Shown in pieces: positions 48,090 to 59,546 of a stretch of 64,000 bases of DNA (its first letter is position 1; every line of letters starts with the position of its first letter). A program made the translations under genes and the position numbers. The stretch is from an uncultured Acidobacteriota bacterium. GTDB lineage: Bacteria > Acidobacteriota > UBA6911. The notes beneath the pieces are model-generated. The model was not told the origin of the DNA. It searched no databases and worked only from the letters and a program-made list of their open reading frames with translations. The stretch lies in contig CAWJKZ010000027.1 of NCBI GenBank assembly GCA_963843575.1, forward strand, positions 32,001 to 96,000. Reading direction: 5' to 3'.

Positions 48090-48134
48090 TCCGGCGCCCC
48101 ACCCGGGGGTTGCCGCACATGGAGGTTGGGAAAG

Positions 48135-49565
48135 ATGGACTCTGCAACGTTCCGCAGCCTGGGGCACGAACTTGTGGACTGGGTGGCCGATTATCGGGAG
48201 CGGCTGGAGTGCCTGCCCGTAATGAGTCAGGTGCGGCCGGGCGAGATCCGGGCCCGCCTGCCCCAGGATCCGCCCATCCAGGGAGGAGGACTGGCCGAGG
48301 CCGTGCGTGCCCTGGACACGGACATCCTCCCGGGCATCACGCACTGGAACCACCCTTCTTTTTTCGCCTATTTCCCCAGCAACACCAGCTACTCTTCGAT
48401 CCTGGCGGACCTCGTCGCCTCCGGCCTCGGGGTGCAGGGAATGAGCTGGCAGACCAGCCCAGCGGCCACGGAGGTCGAGGAGATCGTCATGGAGTGGCTG
48501 CGCCGGATGGTGGCGCTCCCGCCGGCCTGGACCGGGGTCGTGCACGACACGGCGAGCACGGCGACGTTGTGCGCCCTGCTCTGCGCCCGCGAAAAGATCT
48601 CCGGGTTCGCGCAGAACGGCCCCGGCCTCCAGTCCGGGGAAGCCCCGATGGTCGTCTACGCGTCCAACCAGAGTCACAGCTCCATCGAGAAAGGGACGCT
48701 GCTGGCTGGCTTCGGCAGGAATCACCTCCGTCTCATCGACACCGACGGCGCCCACGCGCTCCGGCTCGACCTGCTGGAACAGGCCGTGCAAGTGGACCTC
48801 GCGGCGGGGTTGCGTCCCGCGGCCGTGGTCGCGGCCGTCGGCACCACCGCCACAACCGCGCTCGACCCCCTGAAGGGGATTGCCGCGCTGGCGCAGAAGC
48901 ACGGGATGTGGCTGCACGTGGACGCGGCCATGGCGGGCACCGCCATGGTCCTCCCCGAGTGTCGCTGGATGTGGGAGGGCATCGAGGAAGCCGACAGCGT
49001 CGTGTTTAATCCCCACAAATGGATGGGGGTCGGCTTCGACTTCAGCGCCTACTTCGTCAGGGACCCGCAGCACCTCGTACGGGTGATGAGCACCAACCCC
49101 AGCTATTTGCAGACTGCCCAGGACGGCCAGGTGAAGAACTACCGGGACTGGCACATCCAGCTGGGCCGCCGGTTCCGTTCGCTCAAGCTGCTCTTCTTCC
49201 TGATGGACGTGGGCGTCGAGGGGCTGCAGGCACGCATACGCCGGGATCTCGACAACGCACGCTGGCTCCGCGACCAGGCCGCGCCCGACCCGGAGTGGGA
49301 GCTGATGGCCCCGGTGCCCCTGCAAACCGTCTGTTTGCGCCACGTCCCCGCGCGGCTGCGCGGGGACGAGCCGGGGCTCACCCGCCACAACCGGGACATC
49401 GCCCTGCGGGTCAACGACAGCGGCCGGGCCTACCTGACCACCTCCGAATTGAAGGGGCGGCAAATTCTCCGGGTAAGCATCGGGGCCGAAGCGACCGAGC
49501 GCAGGCATGTTGCGGCCCTCTGGACGGCGCTCCGCGAGGCGGCGCGGCCGGCGGCGGCATCGTGA
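48135..49565 (+). CDS. PLP-dependent group II (aromatic-L-amino-acid-type) decarboxylase
   Basis: GITHWNHP, SPAATEVE, HSSIEKG, WLHVDAA, NPHKW, LGRRFRSLK. Confidence 0.93.
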   Translation: MDSATFRSLGHELVDWVADYRERLECLPVMSQVRPGEIRARLPQDPPIQGGGLAEAVRALDTDILPGITHWNHPSFFAYFPSNTSYSSILADLVASGLGVQGMSWQTSPAATEVEEIVMEWLRRMVALPPAWTGVVHDTASTATLCALLCAREKISGFAQNGPGLQSGEAPMVVYASNQSHSSIEKGTLLAGFGRNHLRLIDTDGAHALRLDLLEQAVQVDLAAGLRPAAVVAAVGTTATTALDPLKGIAALAQKHGMWLHVDAAMAGTAMVLPECRWMWEGIEEADSVVFNPHKWMGVGFDFSAYFVRDPQHLVRVMSTNPSYLQTAQDGQVKNYRDWHIQLGRRFRSLKLLFFLMDVGVEGLQARIRRDLDNARWLRDQAAPDPEWELMAPVPLQTVCLRHVPARLRGDEPGLTRHNRDIALRVNDSGRAYLTTSELKGRQILRVSIGAEATERRHVAALWTALREAARPAAAS

Positions 49566-49635: not shown

Positions 49636-51234
49636 TTGACGAACCAGTTCAGGACCGCGCTCGAGAAGGGTGAGTTTGTCTACACGGCAGAACTGGTGCT
49701 CGGCAGGGACCACTCGGTGCCGGAGGCCGAGGAGTTCGTCCGCGCCGCGGCACGGGAGCCGCGAGGCGTGCGGATCGTCAGCGTCACCGATCTCCCCGGC
49801 GGGAACCCAGCCCTACCACCCGAGGCGTTCGTCCCCTTCCTCCTAAAAAACGGCCTCACCCCCATCGCGCACCTGACAGGCAAGGACGGCAACCGGGCCG
49901 CAATCGAGAGCCGTCTCCACGCGCTGGCGCGCCTGGGGGTCGACAACATCCTAGCCCTGACGGGCGATGCGCCGCGCAGCGGGTTCCTGGGCAGACCGAA
50001 GCCGGTCTTCGATCTCGATTCCGTCCTGATCCTCCGGCTCATCCAGGCCATGGGCTCCGGGATCCGATTCGAGGTCGGTTCCAGGACGGCACAGACCACA
50101 CCCTTCGAGTTCTTCGCCGGCGCCGTGGTCAATCCCTTCAAAGGACGGCAACCCGACCTCATGATGCAGCTCTACAAGCTGGAGCTGAAGATCAGGGCGG
50201 GCGCCGCGTTCGTCATCCCGCAGATCGGGTACAACCTCCGCAAGTTATACGAGGCCAGGCAGTACATGATGCGGGAAGGGCTTGCAGTGCCCGTCCTCGC
50301 CAACGTGTACGTCCCGACGGCCGCCATCGCACGCCGGATGAAGGAGGGTGAGATCCCAGGCTGTGCCGTCGGCGATGCGCTCATCCGCCGGCTGGAGGGG
50401 GAAAAGAAGCCGCAGCGGCTGGAACGGGCGGCCCTGATGGTCGCAGCCGCCAGGACGCTGGGCTTTGCCGGGGCGCACATCGGGGGGTTCGGGCTCAGCC
50501 ACGGCGATTTCCTCCACATCATCGACCGCTCGCTCGAGATCGGGCCCGACTGGAAAGGCCGCATCGACGAACTCCTGTTCGAGACGACGCCCGACGAATT
50601 CTATCTCCTCCCGGCGGCGGCCGACGGTCTCAGTGACGGCGCGGGACGGTATCGGCTCCCGGCCCTCCCCGCGCCCACCTTGAACGCCCGGGTCGGTGAC
50701 CTGGTCCACCGGCACCTGATCGACCCCAGCTCGGCTCCAGCCAGGTTCCTCTCCCGCCGGTTCGGCGGGCGCGAGGGGAACGGCGCGGGCTGGAGGACCG
50801 GTTTCTGGTACCGGATGCTCGGCCTGGCGACCCTTTACCGCAAGGCGGCCCTGGGCTGCGCTGGGTGCGGCGACTGCGTTCAGGACCACCTCGGTTACGC
50901 GGGCTGCTCGATGCGCTGGTGCTACAAGAACCTGCGCAACGGCCCGTGCGGCGGCTCGCGCCCCGACGGCTCGTGTGAGGCCGTCCCGGAAAACCCCTGC
51001 ATATGGAACCGGGTCTACCTGAACACGCTCGGGCTGAAGCGCGACCCCGGCAAATTCGCCTCCACCCTCGTCCCGCCGCGCGACTGGGGCCTGGACCACA
51101 CCAACGCGCTCGCCAACCGGTTCGCCGGCATCGACAACCTCGAGCGCCGGGCCAGGCTGGAGGCACCGGGGACAGAACACCGGGAAGACGACCGGAGTGA
51201 ACTCGACGGGGCGGATGAAACCCGCCCCCGCTAA
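49636..51234 (+). CDS. metF: Methylenetetrahydrofolate reductase fused to a C-terminal MetV-like Cys-rich domain
   Basis: SVTDLPGGNP, HLTGKDGNR, LALTGD, FDLDSV, KIRAGA.F.IPQ; C-terminal CAGCGDC...C..WC.KNLRNGPCGGS...CE...CIW. Confidence 0.88.
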   Translation: MTNQFRTALEKGEFVYTAELVLGRDHSVPEAEEFVRAAAREPRGVRIVSVTDLPGGNPALPPEAFVPFLLKNGLTPIAHLTGKDGNRAAIESRLHALARLGVDNILALTGDAPRSGFLGRPKPVFDLDSVLILRLIQAMGSGIRFEVGSRTAQTTPFEFFAGAVVNPFKGRQPDLMMQLYKLELKIRAGAAFVIPQIGYNLRKLYEARQYMMREGLAVPVLANVYVPTAAIARRMKEGEIPGCAVGDALIRRLEGEKKPQRLERAALMVAAARTLGFAGAHIGGFGLSHGDFLHIIDRSLEIGPDWKGRIDELLFETTPDEFYLLPAAADGLSDGAGRYRLPALPAPTLNARVGDLVHRHLIDPSSAPARFLSRRFGGREGNGAGWRTGFWYRMLGLATLYRKAALGCAGCGDCVQDHLGYAGCSMRWCYKNLRNGPCGGSRPDGSCEAVPENPCIWNRVYLNTLGLKRDPGKFASTLVPPRDWGLDHTNALANRFAGIDNLERRARLEAPGTEHREDDRSELDGADETRPR

Positions 51235-51249
51235 CGCGGAGGTCTCACC

Positions 51250-52053
51250 ATGCTCGTCATAGGCGAGCGCATCAACGCGACGCGCAAACGCATCCGGGAA
51301 GCGGTGCTTGCCGGTAACGCGGATCTGATCAAAGAAGAAGCGCGCAGGCAGGTCGAAGCCGGCGCCCACATGCTCGACGTCAACGGAGGCATCGAGGGGA
51401 GGGAGCCGGAACTGTTGAAGTGGCTCGTCGGCATCGTCCAGGGCGTGACGGACGTGCCGCTGTGCCTCGACAGCGCCGACCCGGACGCGCTGCGCCAGGC
51501 CCTGCCGCTGTGCCGCGGCCAGGCGATGATCAACTCGGTCACCGACGAAGACGCCCGCTGCGCGGCCCTTCTGCCGGTGATCCTGGAAGCGCGCACGAAG
51601 GTGGTCGCCCTCTGCATGTCCGCCTCCGGGCCGCCATCGGGCGTGGACGACCGCGTGACCACCGCCGTCCGCCTGGTCGACAGGCTCACCTCCGCGGGCG
51701 TTCCGCCGCAGGACATCTACGTCGATCCCTGCGTGTTTCCCACAAGCACCGGGGGTGCGCATGGCCCCGCGCTGCTGGAGGCCGTTGGCCGGATCAGGGC
51801 ACTCTGCCCCGAGGTCCACACGACCTGCGGGGTGAGCAACGTCTCGTTCGGGCTACCGGCGCGGAAGCTGCTGAACGAGGTCTTCCTCATGATGCTGCTC
51901 GGGCGCGGCCTCGACGCCGCCATCATCGACCCGTGCGACACCGGACTGATGGCCCGCGTAACCGCCGCCGAAGCCCTTATCGGGCGCGACGATTTCTGCG
52001 AAGCCTACCTGCTCTCCTACCGCGCCGGCAAGCTCGGGGAGGTCTCCAGGTAA
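51250..52053 (+). CDS. acsE: Methyltetrahydrofolate:corrinoid methyltransferase (pterin-binding, AcsE-like)
   Basis: VIGERINATRK, LDVNGG, PLCLDS, MINS, YVDP, GVSNVSFGLP.R.LLN, GLDAAIIDP. Confidence 0.82.
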   Translation: MLVIGERINATRKRIREAVLAGNADLIKEEARRQVEAGAHMLDVNGGIEGREPELLKWLVGIVQGVTDVPLCLDSADPDALRQALPLCRGQAMINSVTDEDARCAALLPVILEARTKVVALCMSASGPPSGVDDRVTTAVRLVDRLTSAGVPPQDIYVDPCVFPTSTGGAHGPALLEAVGRIRALCPEVHTTCGVSNVSFGLPARKLLNEVFLMMLLGRGLDAAIIDPCDTGLMARVTAAEALIGRDDFCEAYLLSYRAGKLGEVSR

Positions 52054-52409: not shown

Positions 52410-53918
52410 ATGGTCAACAAAATAAGCTACAAGCTCATCCTGGCCGTGGGCGGCGTGGCGCTTGTCATCGTAAGCGCCTACGCCTTCGTGACCCTCAGGG
52501 CCCATCACGCGCAGCTTATCAGCGAGTTGCGCCGTAGCGCGAATCAGCTCAGCGAGACGATCAAGAGCAGTACCCGATACGACATGCTGTTGAACCAGCG
52601 GGAATCCGTGCACCGCATCATCAACACCATCGGCACACAGGAGGGCATTCAGAAGGTCCGCATTTTCAACAAAGAGGGGGCGATCATCGTCTCGACGGAT
52701 TCGGCCGACATCGGCCGGATGGTGGACAAGAATGCGGAGGCCTGTTACGTCTGCCACGCGGCGAATCAGCCTATCGAGAGACTGGGGATACCGGATCGCA
52801 CCCGCATTTTTCAGCCCGCGGGCGGCGATCGGATCCTGAGCATCATCAACCCCATCTACAACGAGCCGACCTGCTGGCAGAGCGACTGCCACGCACACGA
52901 CCCCGCCAAGAAGGTGCTGGGCGTGCTGGATATATCGATGTCGCTGCGCGACGTGGACCGTGAAACGAGGGCCAGCGAGAACCGCCTGGTGCTGTTCGGC
53001 CTCGGAGCCATCGCCGCCGTAAGCCTGATCATTTACCTGTTGGTCGACCAGATCGTGCTCAAACCGGTGCACAAGATCGTGGACGCGACCCGCAAAGTGG
53101 CCGCCGGCGACCTCCACTACAAGATTGCCCTCGAGAAGCGGGACGAGATCGGTCAACTGGCGAGTTCCTTCAACGAGATGACGCAAAAACTCGCGGAAGC
53201 GCAGCGCCAGGTCTATCAGTCGCAAAAGCTCGCGGCCGTCGGCCAACTGGCCGCGGGAGTTGCGCACGAAATCAACAACCCCCTCACAGGGGTGCTGAGT
53301 TACAGCAGTTTTCTGCTCAAGCGCGCACAGGACAAGCCCGAGTTCAAGGAGGACCTGGAGGTGATCGTGCGCGAGACCAAGCGGTGCCGCGGAATCGTGC
53401 AGGGTCTGCTCGACTTCGCGCGCCAGTCGCCGCCGGAAAAACACGAGAGCGACATAACAGATATTTTCGAGCGCGCGCTCCGCATCGTGCAAACCCAGAT
53501 CGACCCGCTTCGCGTCGAGCTGAAGAAGGACATCCGCGACGACCTGCCCAAGATCTACGCGGACGCCAATCAAATCCAGCAGGTCCTGGTCAACCTGCTG
53601 CTCAACGCCAACGACGCCATGGCCGCGGACGGCGGTACCCTTTCGGTCTCCGCCCGTCTCGCGGGGGACGGGGGCGTTGCGGCTGCACAGTCCGGGAAGA
53701 TCGAGATCCGCGTGAGCGACACCGGGTGCGGCATAGCGCCCGAAAACCTGCAGAAGATCTTCGATCCATTTTTCTCGACCAAAGGGCCAAAGGGGACCGG
53801 CCTCGGGCTGGCGGTGGCGTGGGGCATCGTGGAAAAACACAACGGACGAATCGAAGCCGAGAGCGAATTGGGCAAGGGGACAACCTTTCGGGTTGTGCTG
53901 CCGATAGGCAGGGGCTAG
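52410..53918 (+). CDS. Membrane sensor histidine kinase with periplasmic heme-c motifs, HAMP, HisKA, HATPase
   Basis: Two TM segments flank CYVCH and CWQSDCHAH; AHEINNPL, NLLLNA, DTGCG, GTGLGL. Confidence 0.93.
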   Translation: MVNKISYKLILAVGGVALVIVSAYAFVTLRAHHAQLISELRRSANQLSETIKSSTRYDMLLNQRESVHRIINTIGTQEGIQKVRIFNKEGAIIVSTDSADIGRMVDKNAEACYVCHAANQPIERLGIPDRTRIFQPAGGDRILSIINPIYNEPTCWQSDCHAHDPAKKVLGVLDISMSLRDVDRETRASENRLVLFGLGAIAAVSLIIYLLVDQIVLKPVHKIVDATRKVAAGDLHYKIALEKRDEIGQLASSFNEMTQKLAEAQRQVYQSQKLAAVGQLAAGVAHEINNPLTGVLSYSSFLLKRAQDKPEFKEDLEVIVRETKRCRGIVQGLLDFARQSPPEKHESDITDIFERALRIVQTQIDPLRVELKKDIRDDLPKIYADANQIQQVLVNLLLNANDAMAADGGTLSVSARLAGDGGVAAAQSGKIEIRVSDTGCGIAPENLQKIFDPFFSTKGPKGTGLGLAVAWGIVEKHNGRIEAESELGKGTTFRVVLPIGRG

Positions 53919-54053
53919 GCATAGACTTTGCGGCCGGCGACGAGCGCTTTCCTGGATCGTGCCCCGACGGTATCCTCGCGTGGACCGTTCGGCGCGCCGT
54001 CGTGCGGACCTCATCCATGGCCGGCGGTTGTCCGGCTTCGTAGAGGCTGAGAG

Positions 54054-55214
54054 GTGGAAAACATGGTTCCTATTCTCGTCGTGACGATGATCGCGGCGTT
54101 CATCGTCGTCGATCTGCTGATCAGGTATGTGTCGAACCGAATGCGCAAGGCCAAGGAACTCAAGGAACGCCTTGCCGCACTGGATACGGGCCTGCGCCTC
54201 GATTTCACCCACGAAGCGAAATCACTCAAGCGGGTGGAGGTGGCCAAGCCGTACGCGCGCATCCTCGCCGTCGACGACGAGGCGATCGTCCTGGACAGCT
54301 TCAGGAAAATCCTCGTCGCGGCCGGATACGCGATCGACACGGTCGAGAGCGGCCGCGAAGCGCTCGGGCTGGTCCAGAGAAACAAGTACGATTTCGTCTT
54401 CACCGACCTGAAGATGCCGGAAATGGACGGCCTCGACGTGGTCAAGGGGGTGAAGCACTTCAGCCCGGAATCGGACATCGTCGTCATCACGGGCTATGCG
54501 ACGATAGAATCCGCCGTCAATGCGATGAAATACGGGGCGATGGACTACGTGCAGAAGCCCTTCACCGAAGACGAGTTGGTCGAGTTCACCAGGAAGTGCC
54601 TGATCCGCAGGCACGACCGCCTGCAGAAAGGGCTGGCCCCCACCGTGCGCGTGGTGACGACAGACCGGCTGCGCGCCAACGAGTTCCGCATCCCGGGGGG
54701 CGTGTTCATCTCCGGCGGTCACGTCTGGGTGAGTGTCACGGTGCCGGGGATCGTGCGGGTGGGGATGGACGATTTCGCGCGCAAGATGATAGGCCACATC
54801 GACGGAATCGAACTGCCGGCCGAGGGCGCCGCCCTGAAGAAAGGCGATCCCCTCTTCAAGGTGAGGCAAGGGGGACGCGTGGCCACCTTTCACGCGCCGG
54901 TCTCGGGTGTCGTCCAGAACCTCAACACCGACTTGCCGCGAAACCTGGACTGGCTGGAACGGCACACCTACGAAAACGGGTGGGTGTGCTCGATGAAACC
55001 CGATCACCTTGCCGACGAGCTCGCGCAGATGAACATCGGCGACAAGGCCGCGGCCTGGTACCAGTTGGAGATCGCGCGTCTGCAGCAACTGTTTGCACCG
55101 CCGCTCGACGACCCGTCCTCGGGGCTCGCGCCCGTCACGCTCGTGGAAGGCCAGTTGCAGGAGGCCGATGACGACCTGTGGGCCAGGTTTGCCGGGACGT
55201 TTCTGCAGCCGTAG
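54054..55214 (+). CDS. Membrane-anchored response-regulator receiver fused to a GcvH-like domain
   Basis: N-terminal hydrophobic helix; VDDE, FTDLKMP, ITGY, QKPF; GHVWV...VRVGMDDFA...HAPVSGVV...N...YENGW. Confidence 0.88.
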   Translation: MENMVPILVVTMIAAFIVVDLLIRYVSNRMRKAKELKERLAALDTGLRLDFTHEAKSLKRVEVAKPYARILAVDDEAIVLDSFRKILVAAGYAIDTVESGREALGLVQRNKYDFVFTDLKMPEMDGLDVVKGVKHFSPESDIVVITGYATIESAVNAMKYGAMDYVQKPFTEDELVEFTRKCLIRRHDRLQKGLAPTVRVVTTDRLRANEFRIPGGVFISGGHVWVSVTVPGIVRVGMDDFARKMIGHIDGIELPAEGAALKKGDPLFKVRQGGRVATFHAPVSGVVQNLNTDLPRNLDWLERHTYENGWVCSMKPDHLADELAQMNIGDKAAAWYQLEIARLQQLFAPPLDDPSSGLAPVTLVEGQLQEADDDLWARFAGTFLQP

Positions 55215-55316
55215 GCTGCCGACTCGTCCAGGAACGGCGTGAACCTCCCGGAGCATTTGCGCACGCGGCCGACCGTGTATGAACCCTAATTCCTTCAGCA
55301 ATCGTAGGTGATTTTT

Positions 55317-56256
55317 ATGGAAAAGAAGCTGCACCGCCGCACGCTCCTCAAGCTGGGCCTGGCCGCGACCGCCGGGGGTTCGACTCCCCCGCTGGCGCTG
55401 GCGTCGTCCCAGCCGCAAGGGCAGAATCAGCCCCCTCCGGACCACGCGGGCGTGCTCGTGGACACGACACTCTGTATCGGGTGCCGGAAGTGCGAGGAGG
55501 CGTGCAATCGCCGGAACAACCTGCCGCGCACGGCCGACGTCCTTTTCAGACCGGGAGGTCCTGCGCTCGTTCCGCCGGCCCAGCGAAACCGCGTTCACCG
55601 TGGTGAACCAGTTCCCGGGGAGCCCTTCACCCGACCAGGCCGACCTGCCGCAGACATATGCGAAGGTCCAATGCATGCACTGCCTCTACCCGTCCTGCGT
55701 CTCGGCGTGCATCGTGGGGGCGCTGACGAAGTCGGCGGACGGCGCAGTGGTCTACAACCCCACGATCTGCCTGGGCTGCCGCTACTGCCAGGTCGCCTGT
55801 CCCTTCGAAATCCCGGCATACGAGTTTCATGAACCGCTCGTGCCGCGTGTGCGCAAGTGCGAGTTCTGCACCGACCGCGCGCGGGGCACCGGGGCCAATC
55901 CCGCCTGCGCCGCCTCTTGCCCCACCGAGGCCCTGGTCTTCGGCCGCAGGGCGGAGTTGCTCGCCATGGCCAAGGAGCGCATCAAGAAACGCCCCAACCG
56001 CTACGTCAACCACGTGTATGGCGAGACGGAGGCGGGGGGGACCGGCTGGCTCTACCTGACCGGGCGGCCGGTGCAGGAGGTCGGACTGCTGAATCTCCCG
56101 AGCAAGGCTCCGCCGCAGCTGACCGAGACCATTCAGCACGGCATCTTCAGATTCGGCATGATCCCGATCGCGTTCTATGGCCTGCTCTCATACCTGTGGC
56201 ACCGCAACATGCAGCGGCCCGGCGATGCCGGCACGACCGAAGGCGGTGCGGAATGA
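55317..56256 (+). CDS. Tat-exported 4x[4Fe-4S] electron-transfer subunit (HybA/HmcB/NrfC-like), frameshift near 55548
   Basis: HRRTLL; CIGCRKCEEAC, CMHC..PSCVSAC, CLGCRYCQVACP, CEFC...CAASCP; C-terminal TM helix. Confidence 0.9.
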
Positions 56257-59200
56257 CCCCCAGACTTCACGACGAACACGGCCACCGCGTCACAAAACCC
56301 TTCTTCACCTTCGGCACGTTGACCCTCCTCATTTTCATGGGCGCCGGGTTTGCCTTCGGCATCACGCGCCTGTTTCTCGGGCTGGGGACCGTGACCAACC
56401 TGGACAACCACAACCCGTGGGGGATCTGGATTGCGTTCGACGTAGCGTGCGGCGTGGCCCTGGCCGCCGGCGGGTTCACCACCGCCGCCCTGGTCGATAT
56501 CTTCGGCAAGAAGAGATACAAAGTCCTGCTGCGCCCGGCCATCCTCACGGCATTCCTCGGTTACCTTTGGGTGGCTATCGCGCTGAGCTTCGATCTCGGC
56601 CGGTACTGGAACATCTGGCGGCCCATCTTCAACTGGCAGGGGAACTCGGTGCTCTTCGAGGTGGGCATGTGCGTCACCGCCTACCTCATGGTGTTGACCG
56701 TCGAGATGAGCCCGGCGTTTCTGGAAGGGCTGAAAGCCCGCATCGACCGGGACGAGTGGGGCGCGGCGCTGCTGCGCAGAGTGGAGAAACCGCTCCTCAC
56801 GCTTCACGCCGCCGTCAAGATCGCCCTGCCGATGTTCATCGTCGCCGGTGTGGTGCTCTCGTTCATGCACCAGTCATCCCTGGGGACGCTCATGCTGATC
56901 GCCCCCAGCAAGATGAGCGCCCTGTGGTTCACCCCCATCCTCCCGCTCCTGTTCCTGCTGTCGGCGATCATGGTCGGGTTCCCGATGGTCATCCTGGAGT
57001 CCATCTACGCCAACATAAGTTTTGGCCGCAACCCGGAAATGGATCTCCTGACCCCGATGGCCCGCATCATCCCCTGGTTCCTCGGGCTCTACGGCGTGGT
57101 GAAAATCGGCGACCTCGTCGTCCGGCATAATCAACTGAATTTCCTCGAGCACCCCGCATCCACCACCGCCCTCGCGATCGAGATCCTGCTGGGCGTCGTA
57201 GCCCCCTTCCTGCTGTTTCTCAGCAAGGCGGTCCGCCGGTCCATGGGCTGGATGTTCTTCACCGTTTGCCTGATCATCTTCGGCGTCGTGCTGAACCGGC
57301 TCAACGTTTTCCTGGTGGCCTACAATCCCCCGTACTCCACCAAGGCTTACTTCCCGTCGATCGGGGAGATCGCGATGACCATCGCGATCGTTTCCAGCAT
57401 ATTGTTCTGCTACCGCTTCTGCGTGACCTTCTTCCCGATCCTGCCGGGCTACGTGCCGAGCGTCGAGGTCCAGATCGCACGCATGCGCGAGGAACGCGAA
57501 ACGGCCGTGAGCCCGTTCTGGACCTGGGCGATCCGCGGTGCCGCCATAGCGTGCCTCCTGACCTTCATCGGCCTGTACAGCTTTGTGCACATCGAGGCCA
57601 TCCAGTCCTCCGTAAAAACCGTCCAGGAGGTGCGGCGCGTTCAGACGCAGATGCGCGTCTCCGCCGCCGGCGCGCCGGGGCCTTCCTATCCCCAGCGTCC
57701 CTCGGGCTACAAGAACTTCTACCTGCTGGACAGCCCCCTGCTGAAGGCCAGGGCGGACGACTACGAGCCGGTGCGCTTCTCGCACCGCATTCACGATGGC
57801 TTGACCGGGGGGGACTGCGGAATCTGCCATCACCGTTTTGCGGGCGACGAGAAGGATCGGCTGGGAAACGACGTCAAGGAGCTGCACGCGTCCATAGACG
57901 TCAAGCTGGGCGGTCCCTGCTCTTCCTGCCACGACAACATGGAACAGAACCCGCCCCAGAGCTGCACCCGCTGCCACGGGATGCCCAACGAGCCGGACAG
58001 CCCCTCACGCCTCGGGCTCAAGGGCGCCTACCACCGCCTCTGCATCGGCTGCCACGAACGCCAGGTCAAACCGACCTCCGCGCCGACGGAGTGCGCCGCC
58101 TGCCACCACCCATGGACACCGGATCATTCCAAGCTGGTCACCCTCGGAGCGAAGCCCAGCCCCCAGGACGTGACGCGGGCGTGCCTGAGCTGCCACGCCA
58201 AGGCGGGGCAGGACCTGCTCAAGACAGCCCACTGGAACTGGAAGGGCTCCTCTCCCACGCTGGCGGGCTACGAGCGCCGCACCGACATCAGCCTGAAGCT
58301 CATGGTGAACAACTACTGCGTCGCCATCGGATCCAACCAGCAGCAATGCATGTCCTGTCACATCGGCTACGGCGGCATGGATGACCGCTACGATTTTTCC
58401 AACCCGGCCAACATCGATTGCCTGATCTGCCACGACACGACCGGGAAGTACAGAAAGGATCCAAGCACGGGCGGACTGCCCGATCCGTCGGTCGACCTGG
58501 TCGCGCTGTCGGCCAGGGTGGGCCGCCCCTCACGGCAGGCCTGCGGTTCGTGCCACTTTTATAGCGGCGGAGCTCCCAATGCCAAACACGGGGACCTGGA
58601 GCCGGCCTTGACCGACTCGAACGAACCGATCGACATGCACATGGGTACCCTGAATATGCGGTGCCAGGATTGCCACACCACCAGCGAACACAGGATCGCC
58701 GGGATGTCGCTGACTGCCCCCGCCGTCGAAGGGCGCATAAGCTGCGACAAGTGCCACGGCCTCACGCCTCACGGGGTTGCCGGCTCGCTGAGCCGCCACC
58801 TGGACGATCACATCGCGAATATCGCCTGCGAAACCTGCCACATCCCTAGCTTTGCCCATCGCTCCCCCACCCTGCTGCGGCGCGATTTTTCCACCGCAGG
58901 CCAGAACCGGCCCGAAACCCTCGACCGGTACGGGATGCCAACCTACGACAAGAAGTTCGGCGCGCTTACCTGGGGGAAGGACTTGGTGCCCGTCTATCTC
59001 TGGTACGACGGGACGCGCAACGCCTCCCTCGCCGGCGGCCGCATCGACCCTTCCTCCCCCGTCCTTCTGAACGCCCCGGTCGGGGAAAAACGCAGTCCCG
59101 TGGCGCGCATCTTCCCCTTCAAGGTGCACGCCGGGGTCCAGCCCTACGACACCGAAAACAACACCCTCGCCTTGCCCGATTTCGTCGGGAACTACTGGGT

Positions 59201-59546
59201 TAACTTCGATTGGGCGAAAGCCCTCGTCGCCGGCATGAAGCGCATGGGCCTACCCTATTCGGGCAAGTACGCATTCGTGGAAACCAAGATGTACTCCTCC
59301 ATCCACCACCAGGTCGCACCGGCGAAAAAGGCGCTGGGCTGCACCGATTGTCACAGCGCGGCGGCCGTCACGTGCGCGCGTTGCCACAAGGGAGCTGCGG
59401 GGACCGCGCTCCCGTCGCACCGGCTCGCCATGTACCCCGAAGTAAAGAACCGGATGGATTTCAAGGCGCTCGGCTACACCGATGATCCCGCCCTCACGGG
59501 CGGCCGCTTTCACATCACCATCGGCCGTGGCTCGCCCGCACAATAG
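56253..59546 (+). CDS. NrfD/HybB membrane subunit fused to a class III cytochrome c and an octaheme tetrathionate-reductase-like domain (14 CxxCH)
   Basis: ATGA overlap with the upstream stop; PWGIWIAFDV..GVALAAGGF, DLGR.W, HQSSLG; VRFSH...LKGAYH; AHWNW, NNYC, CHDTTG, KHGDL, CHIP, PFKVH, IHHQVAP. Confidence 0.9.
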   Translation: MTPRLHDEHGHRVTKPFFTFGTLTLLIFMGAGFAFGITRLFLGLGTVTNLDNHNPWGIWIAFDVACGVALAAGGFTTAALVDIFGKKRYKVLLRPAILTAFLGYLWVAIALSFDLGRYWNIWRPIFNWQGNSVLFEVGMCVTAYLMVLTVEMSPAFLEGLKARIDRDEWGAALLRRVEKPLLTLHAAVKIALPMFIVAGVVLSFMHQSSLGTLMLIAPSKMSALWFTPILPLLFLLSAIMVGFPMVILESIYANISFGRNPEMDLLTPMARIIPWFLGLYGVVKIGDLVVRHNQLNFLEHPASTTALAIEILLGVVAPFLLFLSKAVRRSMGWMFFTVCLIIFGVVLNRLNVFLVAYNPPYSTKAYFPSIGEIAMTIAIVSSILFCYRFCVTFFPILPGYVPSVEVQIARMREERETAVSPFWTWAIRGAAIACLLTFIGLYSFVHIEAIQSSVKTVQEVRRVQTQMRVSAAGAPGPSYPQRPSGYKNFYLLDSPLLKARADDYEPVRFSHRIHDGLTGGDCGICHHRFAGDEKDRLGNDVKELHASIDVKLGGPCSSCHDNMEQNPPQSCTRCHGMPNEPDSPSRLGLKGAYHRLCIGCHERQVKPTSAPTECAACHHPWTPDHSKLVTLGAKPSPQDVTRACLSCHAKAGQDLLKTAHWNWKGSSPTLAGYERRTDISLKLMVNNYCVAIGSNQQQCMSCHIGYGGMDDRYDFSNPANIDCLICHDTTGKYRKDPSTGGLPDPSVDLVALSARVGRPSRQACGSCHFYSGGAPNAKHGDLEPALTDSNEPIDMHMGTLNMRCQDCHTTSEHRIAGMSLTAPAVEGRISCDKCHGLTPHGVAGSLSRHLDDHIANIACETCHIPSFAHRSPTLLRRDFSTAGQNRPETLDRYGMPTYDKKFGALTWGKDLVPVYLWYDGTRNASLAGGRIDPSSPVLLNAPVGEKRSPVARIFPFKVHAGVQPYDTENNTLALPDFVGNYWVNFDWAKALVAGMKRMGLPYSGKYAFVETKMYSSIHHQVAPAKKALGCTDCHSAAAVTCARCHKGAAGTALPSHRLAMYPEVKNRMDFKALGYTDDPALTGGRFHITIGRGSPAQ

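Follow-up and report, generated by a model that had tools for sequence, protein, structure and literature searches.

Can a two-component system act directly on the proteins of a respiratory membrane complex, rather than on the transcription of its genes? To our knowledge, the control that such systems exert on anaerobic respiration is mainly known at the level of transcription. The question is raised by a locus at positions 52410..59546 of a 64,000-nt stretch of DNA (contig CAWJKZ010000027.1 of assembly GCA_963843575.1); the whole stretch is called the window here, and its numbering is used for all coordinates. In this locus, a Cache kinase with two heme motifs is followed by a regulator that joins a transmembrane (TM) segment, a receiver (REC), and a domain resembling the glycine cleavage H-protein (TM-REC-GcvH), then by a HybA/HmcB-like iron-sulfur (Fe-S) protein and a HybB/NrfD-c3-octaheme fusion. 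We found that kinase and regulator are a widespread signalling pair, which is almost always located beside a quinone-linked Fe-S membrane complex and which probably acts on proteins and not on DNA. The four genes are the following:

52410..53918, + strand: class-A sensor histidine kinase, 502 aa (Pfam, TM scan, motif counts, structure model, and tree)
54063..55214, + strand: membrane-anchored response regulator, 383 aa (Pfam, alignments, Foldseek, and lipoyl column)
55317..56256, + strand: HybA/HmcB-like polyferredoxin, C-tailed and with a Tat signal (twin-arginine motif; NCBIfam HmcB/HybA on both pieces of the gene)
56253..59546, + strand: fusion of a HybB/HmcC-type NrfD domain with a region of 14 CxxCH motifs, 1097 aa

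Recurrence of the four-gene locus

An earlier note on this DNA had described four co-oriented genes with no DNA-binding regulator among them, and both observations were confirmed. The genes lie where the note placed them, all on the + strand, with the regulator now starting at the ATG used by its relatives, 9 nt past the GTG of the note, and Pfam and NCBIfam detected no DNA-binding domain in any of the four, nor in the upstream genes that were scanned (two of these with both libraries). Kinase and regulator genes are separated by 144 nt, regulator and Fe-S genes by 102 nt, and the Fe-S and fusion genes overlap by 4 nt.

Related loci were collected through the regulator (79 loci, from the best 80 of 572 confirmed stretches; 41 of them at least 19 kb long) and, since these had been selected by the regulator, a second time through the fusion (80 loci, many of them short; 15 with at least 4 kb on both sides). 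According to record titles, the regulator occurs in Acidobacteriota, Ignavibacteria, KSB1, Bacteroidota, and other, largely uncultured groups. The order of the four genes is repeated in L001, L002, L003, L006, and L127 and is also seen in L005, L128, and L173, in which the contig ends within the fusion. Because of this recurrence, the arrangement is not attributable to chance.

A probable dedicated pair of kinase and regulator

The kinase contains the H-box, HAMP, and ATPase domain of a classical two-component kinase and is organized as TM1 (residues 9-27), a periplasmic single Cache domain, TM2 (194-212), HAMP, HisKA, and HATPase (Pfam and TM scan). In the model of its sensor region (pLDDT 85), a single Cache fold is seen that corresponds to the Cache domains of WalK and of the heme sensor GSU0935, with a fold match to 3B42 (E 4.9e-6); model, fold match, and TM scan agree on the periplasmic single Cache fold of sCache_heme sensors (DUF3365/Tll0287). 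A canonical CxxCH motif is found at residue 112 and a CX4CH motif at residue 155. Both occur in 80/80 sensor kinases examined, and the four motif cysteines are invariant in the sensor alignment. PF21563 matches 51 of 54 sensor members and in the window kinase covers the region of the CX4CH motif, 43 residues before which the canonical motif is situated. PF11845, which together with a canonical CXXCH in the beta3-beta4 insertion characterizes the sCache_heme sensors, matched 0 of the 54 members, and a sequence search with the sensor against the PDB gave nothing significant. When PF21563 was used as a genome query, there was no match anywhere, the controls being likewise silent, and this query was uninformative. 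Heme-c maturation genes were found in the source genome, and the nearest relatives in the kinase tree are Acidobacteriota records. Judged from its motifs, the Cache domain would bind one or two c-type hemes. Since heme-c Cache sensors (GSU0582 and GSU0935; the one HAMP-fused member tested acted as a nitric oxide (NO) sensor, excerpts of PMC12889525) and two-motif versions (GSU0591 and GSU0599, mentioned in excerpts of PMC3831638) are already in print, the heme kinase is a known kind of sensor.

A class-A kinase lies beside the regulator in 69 of the 79 loci, including 41 of the 41 loci of at least 19 kb. Kinases with this sensor split into class A, which precedes REC-GcvH, and class B, which precedes NtrC (sensor tree branch 100/97; some class-B branches of the kinase tree are long). 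The two classes differ in the H-box helix at positions that we take to set specificity: class A has T at H+7, S at H+14, and mostly F at H+15, whereas class B has mostly E, then K and L/V. On the receiver side, the last position of helix 1 is I in 80/80 TM-receivers and W in the NtrCs that follow class-B kinases. Among the rows of this comparison, L032_430 and L044_166 are class-B kinases cut by contig ends, L021 contains a truncated TM-receiver, and L028 is frameshifted. The loci fetched through the fusion show the same pairing, with a class-A kinase next to REC-GcvH in 10 of 13 cases (the remaining 3 are cut by contig ends) and class-B kinases preceding REC-HTH_8 genes in L131 and L141. Kinase and REC-GcvH are thus in all probability a dedicated pair, and the predicted phosphotransfer from one to the other is strongly supported by genomics, through co-occurrence and specificity residues.

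A receiver fused to a lipoyl-less H-protein domain

The regulator is composed of an N-terminal TM segment (residues 2-20), a receiver (67-174), a GcvH-like domain (about 205-345), and a conserved C-terminal extension. Pfam identified Response_reg and GCV_H (PF01597, 64.6 bits) alone, with no AAA+ or DNA-binding output. The phosphorylation residues of the receiver (D71, D72, D115, T143, and K165 in the window) are invariant in one alignment, and acidic pocket, phospho-Asp, Thr, and Lys are kept in 80, 79, 79, and 80 of 80 members, respectively. The protein family is large and conserved; the best 120 relatives listed, the window protein itself included, are 67-100% identical.

As the full-length model had low confidence in the receiver region (mean pLDDT 64), the GcvH part alone was used; it matched GcvH in Foldseek (E 6e-11), with a TM-score of 0.91 on 1ONL, and the ESM Atlas search returned solely GCV_H clusters, below 0.9. 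The position of the lipoyl lysine was set by the two ordinary H-proteins that the source genome encodes elsewhere. By this test, the window regulator, with G271 in that column, is not a lipoyl-accepting H-protein, and Lys is found there in 2/79 long, 2/54 short, and 0/14 receiver-less members. Because the H-fold is non-lipoylatable and comes without a DNA-binding domain, its output is likely exerted by protein contact. In solved complexes with T-protein, LplA, and LIAS, the GcvH fold is a protein-docking domain.

Receiver-less TM-GcvH proteins are encoded directly upstream of Fe-S/NrfD genes, heading those operons. They resemble the regulator in the N-terminal TM segment and the C-terminal extension and align with it across all C-terminal 181 columns (probability 99.6). 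Moreover, a Cys-rich GcvH form recurs among related loci. This comparison, which is unrooted, suggests that a receiver was inserted into a TM-GcvH-type ancestor, which would have made it switchable. A 235-aa protein without a Pfam match, found at L044:1857-2564 and in 17 other loci, carries four cysteines near its N-terminus in a motif resembling that of the Cys-rich GcvH form; in L044, its gene sits between a GcvH-like gene and a class-B kinase. Another locus (L118:8810-15919) encodes three GcvH-like proteins near a sigma54 regulator, one of them with an N-terminal multi-cysteine, ferredoxin-like region.

Proposed mechanism

The mechanism that we favor, while giving it slightly less than an even chance, has three elements: heme would act as the sensor, the tethered receiver would be phosphorylated, and the NrfD module would be tuned in its activity or assembly through contact with the H-fold or TM segment. 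First, the c-type heme(s) of the periplasmic Cache domain would respond to a gas, for instance NO, or to the redox state of cytochromes in the periplasm. The kinase would then phosphorylate the adjacent membrane-tethered receiver, its dedicated partner, a step for which genomics provides strong support. Third, as the regulator sequence suggests, the non-lipoylatable H-fold would act by protein contact at the cytoplasmic face of the membrane. The last step is the weakest: the target would be the neighbouring Fe-S/NrfD quinone module, and in Fe-S/NrfD operons, the receiver-less TM-GcvH proteins seem to be accessory subunits of this kind. The complex would pass electrons between the quinone pool and its 14-heme periplasmic head, in most genomes without the pair, and transcription would be left to a separate, paralogous kinase-NtrC pair.

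In a broader version, which we consider conceivable but on balance doubtful, lipoyl-less H-protein domains (TM-only, Cys-rich, and receiver-fused) would constitute an unrecognised class of membrane-anchored accessories of Fe-S/NrfD modules. Together with the two heme-kinase clades, they would form direct signalling between complex and kinase, serving as a respiration switch or, where Tat signal and cytochrome are lacking, as a quinone-pool sensor.

The pair, the complex, and alternative explanations

Seen from the regulator, the association is strong, with Fe-S and NrfD genes nearby in 63/79 loci and 40/41 long loci. However, it is weak when seen from the complex, and the following observations, together with the signs of a transcriptional tier and the frameshift in the Fe-S gene described below, weigh against the proposed mechanism. 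The fusion has the pair nearby in 14 of its 80 loci (many of them short) and in 2 of the 15 with at least 4 kb on both sides (2/11 distinct clusters). Among 301 genomes of the phylum, 11 encode the fusion and 25 the regulator, and 2 encode both. This first count scored 6 candidates per genome, and the GcvH domain by itself was then searched for in the nine genomes that have just the fusion: in these 9 of the 11 fusion-bearing genomes, no REC-GcvH was found beyond weak matches in short frames, and the sensor had no match in the 8 of the nine in which it was tested, the positive controls being matched. Divergence of the regulator correlates better with that of the kinase (Spearman 0.74) than with that of the nearest NrfD (0.58) across 60 loci, as it does in the 16 closest loci (0.63 versus 0.33), kin not being independent in either set, and regulators approximately 70% identical to that of L001 adjoin NrfDs that are just approximately 42% identical. 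Furthermore, at this locus Fe-S protein and cytochrome are predicted to be periplasmic and the GcvH domain cytoplasmic, so that the membrane subunit is the sole possible contact. A complex prediction of NrfD, the C-terminal part of the Fe-S protein, and TM-REC-GcvH gave no answer either way (score 0.01, mark 0.32).

The neighbours of the regulator are also not uniform. When 8 of the 23 regulator-only genomes were sampled, six had genes for Fe-S, NrfD, kinase, and REC-GcvH alone, and neither a multiheme nor a sigma54 match turned up within 20 kb. Among 157 classified Fe-S genes, 31 lack a Tat motif as well as a multiheme neighbour (five repeat loci were dropped beforehand; the Tat call of L020 is false, the Tat-less calls of L054 and L150 seem to result from wrong start sites, and cut contigs make up most of the 20 rows with Tat but no cytochrome), and 15 of 15 Tat-less genes checked have no open reading frame (ORF) with a Tat motif in the 700 nt upstream. 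These modules are what one would expect if information flowed in reverse, that is, if Fe-S/NrfD read the quinone pool and reported to the kinases, with lipoyl-less GcvH domains as scaffolds and, at this locus, the cytochrome-bearing complex in that place. Regulatory hydrogenases, which feed the HoxJ/HupT kinases, offer an analogy. In line with such a flow, these modules have no catalytic subunit, yet they lie beside a heme kinase in L205-L208, L211, and L212, and L109-L112 combine them with a class-B kinase, NtrC, and GcvH-like genes. We nevertheless consider it unlikely: the window locus represents the form with Tat signal and cytochrome, which stands alone in most genomes, as an enzyme or conduit would, and a Tat-less Fe-S protein could be exported by hitchhiking with a protein whose gene lies elsewhere, a route that has been put forward for an Fe-Fe hydrogenase module (excerpts of 10.1101/2023.11.02.564894).

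The composition of some of these clusters deserves a separate description. L109-L112 and L117 comprise one or two TM-GcvH genes, a Tat-less Fe-S gene, NrfD, a Cys-rich GcvH gene, and a class-B kinase, with no cytochrome; NtrC follows the kinase in L109-L112, and L117 ends at the kinase. They are candidates for a purely sensory apparatus.

Because the fusion mostly stands alone, the regulator tracks its kinase, and Fe-S/NrfD neighbours can be cytochrome-less, the earlier description of a module wired to this respiratory complex was too narrow: the near-constant Fe-S/NrfD neighbour supports it, but this cytochrome complex mostly occurs without the pair. The constant partner is some Fe-S/NrfD pair, not this respiratory chain. 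Since it also adjoins Fe-S/NrfD modules without Tat signal and cytochrome, the kinase-regulator pair is an optional, swappable accessory and not a core subunit.

The post-translational action proposed in the same note agrees with an output that has neither a DNA-binding fold nor a lipoyl lysine, but a transcriptional tier is located elsewhere in the genome. At C13:259971-262973, a paralogous two-motif class-B heme kinase (frameshifted in the assembly) precedes a regulator of the NtrC type, and genes for GcvH-like, Fe-S, or NrfD proteins are absent beside it. Other receivers of the source genome have helix-1 patterns (IVSKW, SISKI, TVSKI, and VVSKT) close to the IVSKI found here, and an NtrC gene 38 nt upstream of the class-A kinase in L059 speaks against strict insulation. 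Receiver-sigma54 genes occur near the regulator in only 12/79 loci and 8/41 long loci, which favors the proposed mechanism; the module is accompanied by a class-B kinase-NtrC pair in about ten loci. Given the C13 pair and the similar receiver residues, a separate transcriptional tier exists in the source genome, and cross-talk between the kinase and other receivers may take place. The output could then be transcriptional in an indirect way, with the receiver as phosphate sink, relay, or anti-activator or with the kinase also phosphorylating a distant NtrC, for which BccR, a sigma54 regulator of a quinone-cytochrome operon, sets a precedent (excerpts of 10.1101/2021.04.15.440034).

This indirect route nonetheless appears rather improbable to us. 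Classes A and B differ consistently on both the kinase and the receiver side, the one sensor match of genome G093 (100% complete, one contig) is class A, and neither the conserved GcvH domain nor the TM anchor would be required for a phosphate sink. In addition, a scan with a sigma54 consensus (threshold 10 of 12 positions) found a promoter signal in 0/77 upstream regions of kinases, compared to 4/74 for Fe-S genes (0.25 expected from base shuffles), 1/16 for receiver-less GcvH genes, and 1/78 for TM-receiver genes. The best sigma54 site of the window was rejected, as it lies inside the regulator coding sequence and recurs there in L002. Class A is a clade apart from the paralogous kinases found ahead of NtrC or HTH regulators, although the source genome also has the C13 sigma54 pair. 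Neither of the two outcomes named at the outset as fatal to the idea, that the genes do not co-occur elsewhere or that the kinase prefers a sigma54 or other DNA-binding regulator encoded elsewhere, was cleanly observed. A further region, C13:62286-70724, has genes for a double-receiver protein, a kinase, NtrC, and a MarR-like protein beside hdrABC-like genes (names read from translations), and its receivers resemble that of the window regulator in helix 1.

Another explanation would take the H-fold as an adaptor or decoy for a different cytoplasmic partner, such as a protease, a lipoate or one-carbon enzyme, or an assembly factor, with gene order reflecting shared growth conditions. The docking of GcvH to T-protein, LplA, and LIAS, the swapping among NrfD types, and the MTHFR and methyltransferase genes just upstream are compatible with it. 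However, the latter two match none of the fetched loci, and no gene for such a partner recurs among the clusters of neighbouring ORFs, whereas Fe-S/NrfD does; we regard this explanation as very unlikely.

Finally, the Fe-S gene is split into two frames in this assembly by one extra base at approximately 55537-55540, as shown by DNA alignment with L001 and L002, a feature absent from the earlier note. If the frameshift were real, the complex would be undergoing loss in the source organism, and the position of the base outside a homopolymer run is in keeping with this. On the other hand, a public contig (depth 2, no substitutions over 151 nt) lacks base 55537, testing of 34 one-kb bins of the assembly revealed frame splits at four places, one of them the C13 kinase, and the other three genes of the locus are intact. 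An assembly error is the likeliest cause, and we give decay of the locus hardly any weight.

The NrfD-c3-octaheme fusion and neighbouring genes

The fusion consists of three parts:

56253..57600, + strand: HybB/HmcC-type NrfD domain with 10 hydrophobic segments and an eleventh (PF03916 and hydropathy; NF008133 and NF045714 below their cut-offs)
57601..58121, + strand: c3/c7-like domain with 5 CxxCH motifs (PF14522, PF02085, and motif positions)
58122..59546, + strand: octaheme domain (8 motifs) of the octaheme tetrathionate reductase (OTR) family without the Lys56 ligand (L681), plus one further CxxCH (TIGR04315, 1SP3, and column counts)

The eleventh segment would presumably bring what follows it into the periplasm. 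As a fusion, the protein belongs to a conserved family. Its octaheme domain scores 471 bits with TIGR04315 (cut-off 375), has eight heme motifs in register, as expected for the OTR family, and matches 1SP3 with E 1e-113. Lys56, the ligand of heme II in octaheme tetrathionate reductase (excerpts of PMC3769277), is replaced by L681 here and by Leu in 104 of 118 fusion relatives, with Lys in 3. One column further on, the window protein has Lys682, where 7/118 relatives have Lys; by sequence, it may be a shifted ligand, in the window protein alone. In 18 of the 118 relatives, the cysteines of the motif for the Lys56-ligand heme are lost and its His is retained. Residue 675 of the fusion is Arg here and His in 105/118 relatives, making it a candidate alternative heme ligand in an octaheme domain without Lys56. 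Among other positions that we assume to be functionally relevant in OTR, the Asp150 column is mostly Pro in the 118 relatives, and the Lys153 and Cys64 columns are mostly kept. The octaheme head may serve as a conduit for electrons or catalyze a different chemistry; its lack of the OTR ligand lysine weakens the earlier reading of the complex, and the fused octaheme should not be taken as a marker of tetrathionate or nitrite reductase unless tested. NrfA (PF02335) had no match in the 88%-complete source genome, which was not used as evidence. At L010:3213-7716, an upstream frame of 1501 codons continues into the NrfD fusion and overlaps the Fe-S gene, which is read in a different frame, and two open frames of the source genome (C18:110882-116577) contain 23 and 43 CxxCH motifs, an unusually high number.

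Upstream of the kinase, co-oriented genes for MTHFR and an AcsE-like methyltetrahydrofolate:corrinoid methyltransferase (49636-52053) end 356 nt before it. A link to one-carbon metabolism was considered and rejected, since neither gene matches any fetched related locus. A pyridoxal-dependent decarboxylase gene at 48126-49565 has a 38-43% identical counterpart downstream of the regulator in 12 related loci, which is probably coincidental. Scans for Sigma70 promoters and terminators yielded chance-level matches only.

Comparison with known systems

The complex resembles a three-gene module of a Tat-targeted, C-tailed Fe-S protein, a HybB-like quinol oxidase, and an OTR-family octaheme cytochrome, which has no conserved flanking genes (excerpts of 10.1101/2023.11.02.564894). 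The component types are the same, and the Fe-S gene lies directly upstream of HybB/NrfD; the locus thus has the Tat signal and C-tail of the Fe-S protein, the HybB-like neighbour, and the OTR cytochrome, but the last two are fused and the Fe-S gene is frameshifted. Here, HybB, a 5-heme c3 domain, and the octaheme form one 1097-aa chain, and the locus includes a heme kinase and a GcvH-like regulator, which the excerpts of that source do not mention. The Hmc complex of Desulfovibrio vulgaris, with an HmcABC core and with rrf1/rrf2 described as expression regulators (same source, in excerpts), likewise has HmcB-like, HmcC-like, multiheme cytochrome, and operon regulator genes. In contrast to Hmc, the window proteins score below the cut-offs for HmcB (44.6 and 229.8 for the two Fe-S pieces versus 420) and HmcC (288.5 versus 550), and no HmcD, E, or F gene is among the four. 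Compared to SO4144 (1SP3), an octaheme tetrathionate reductase, the octaheme scores above the TIGR04315 cut-off with eight motifs in register and Cys64/Lys153 kept, but it has Leu at the Lys56 column, its relatives have mostly Pro at the Asp150 column, and it is fused to NrfD.

With the sCache_heme sensors GSU0582 and GSU0935, the kinase has in common the periplasmic single Cache fold and a heme-c motif; it differs in having two motifs, one of them non-canonical, and in belonging to a family without PF11845 matches. BccR (GSU0598), the sigma54 activator of cbcBA (excerpts of 10.1101/2021.04.15.440034), likewise represents two-component control of a quinone-cytochrome module, and adjacent locus numbers suggest that GSU0599 is its kinase. 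As far as these excerpts go, the BccR system resembles class B and is transcriptional, whereas class A has a GcvH-like output.

A search of the open-access literature, with most subscription journals outside its scope, found no description of a receiver with a lipoyl-less H-protein output that is paired with one kinase clade. With its new output domain and its tethering next to a quinone-linked complex, this conserved receiver would make direct control or direct sensing amenable to testing. The annotation of these regulators should be corrected, as they are neither glycine cleavage H-proteins nor sigma54 regulators. They share their fold with the glycine cleavage H-protein (PF01597) and GcvH-L but lack the lipoyl lysine, are membrane-anchored and fused to a receiver, and have a C-terminal extension. 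While the individual parts of the system are of known kinds, the receiver-GcvH output and its pairing with a kinase clade are apparently new.

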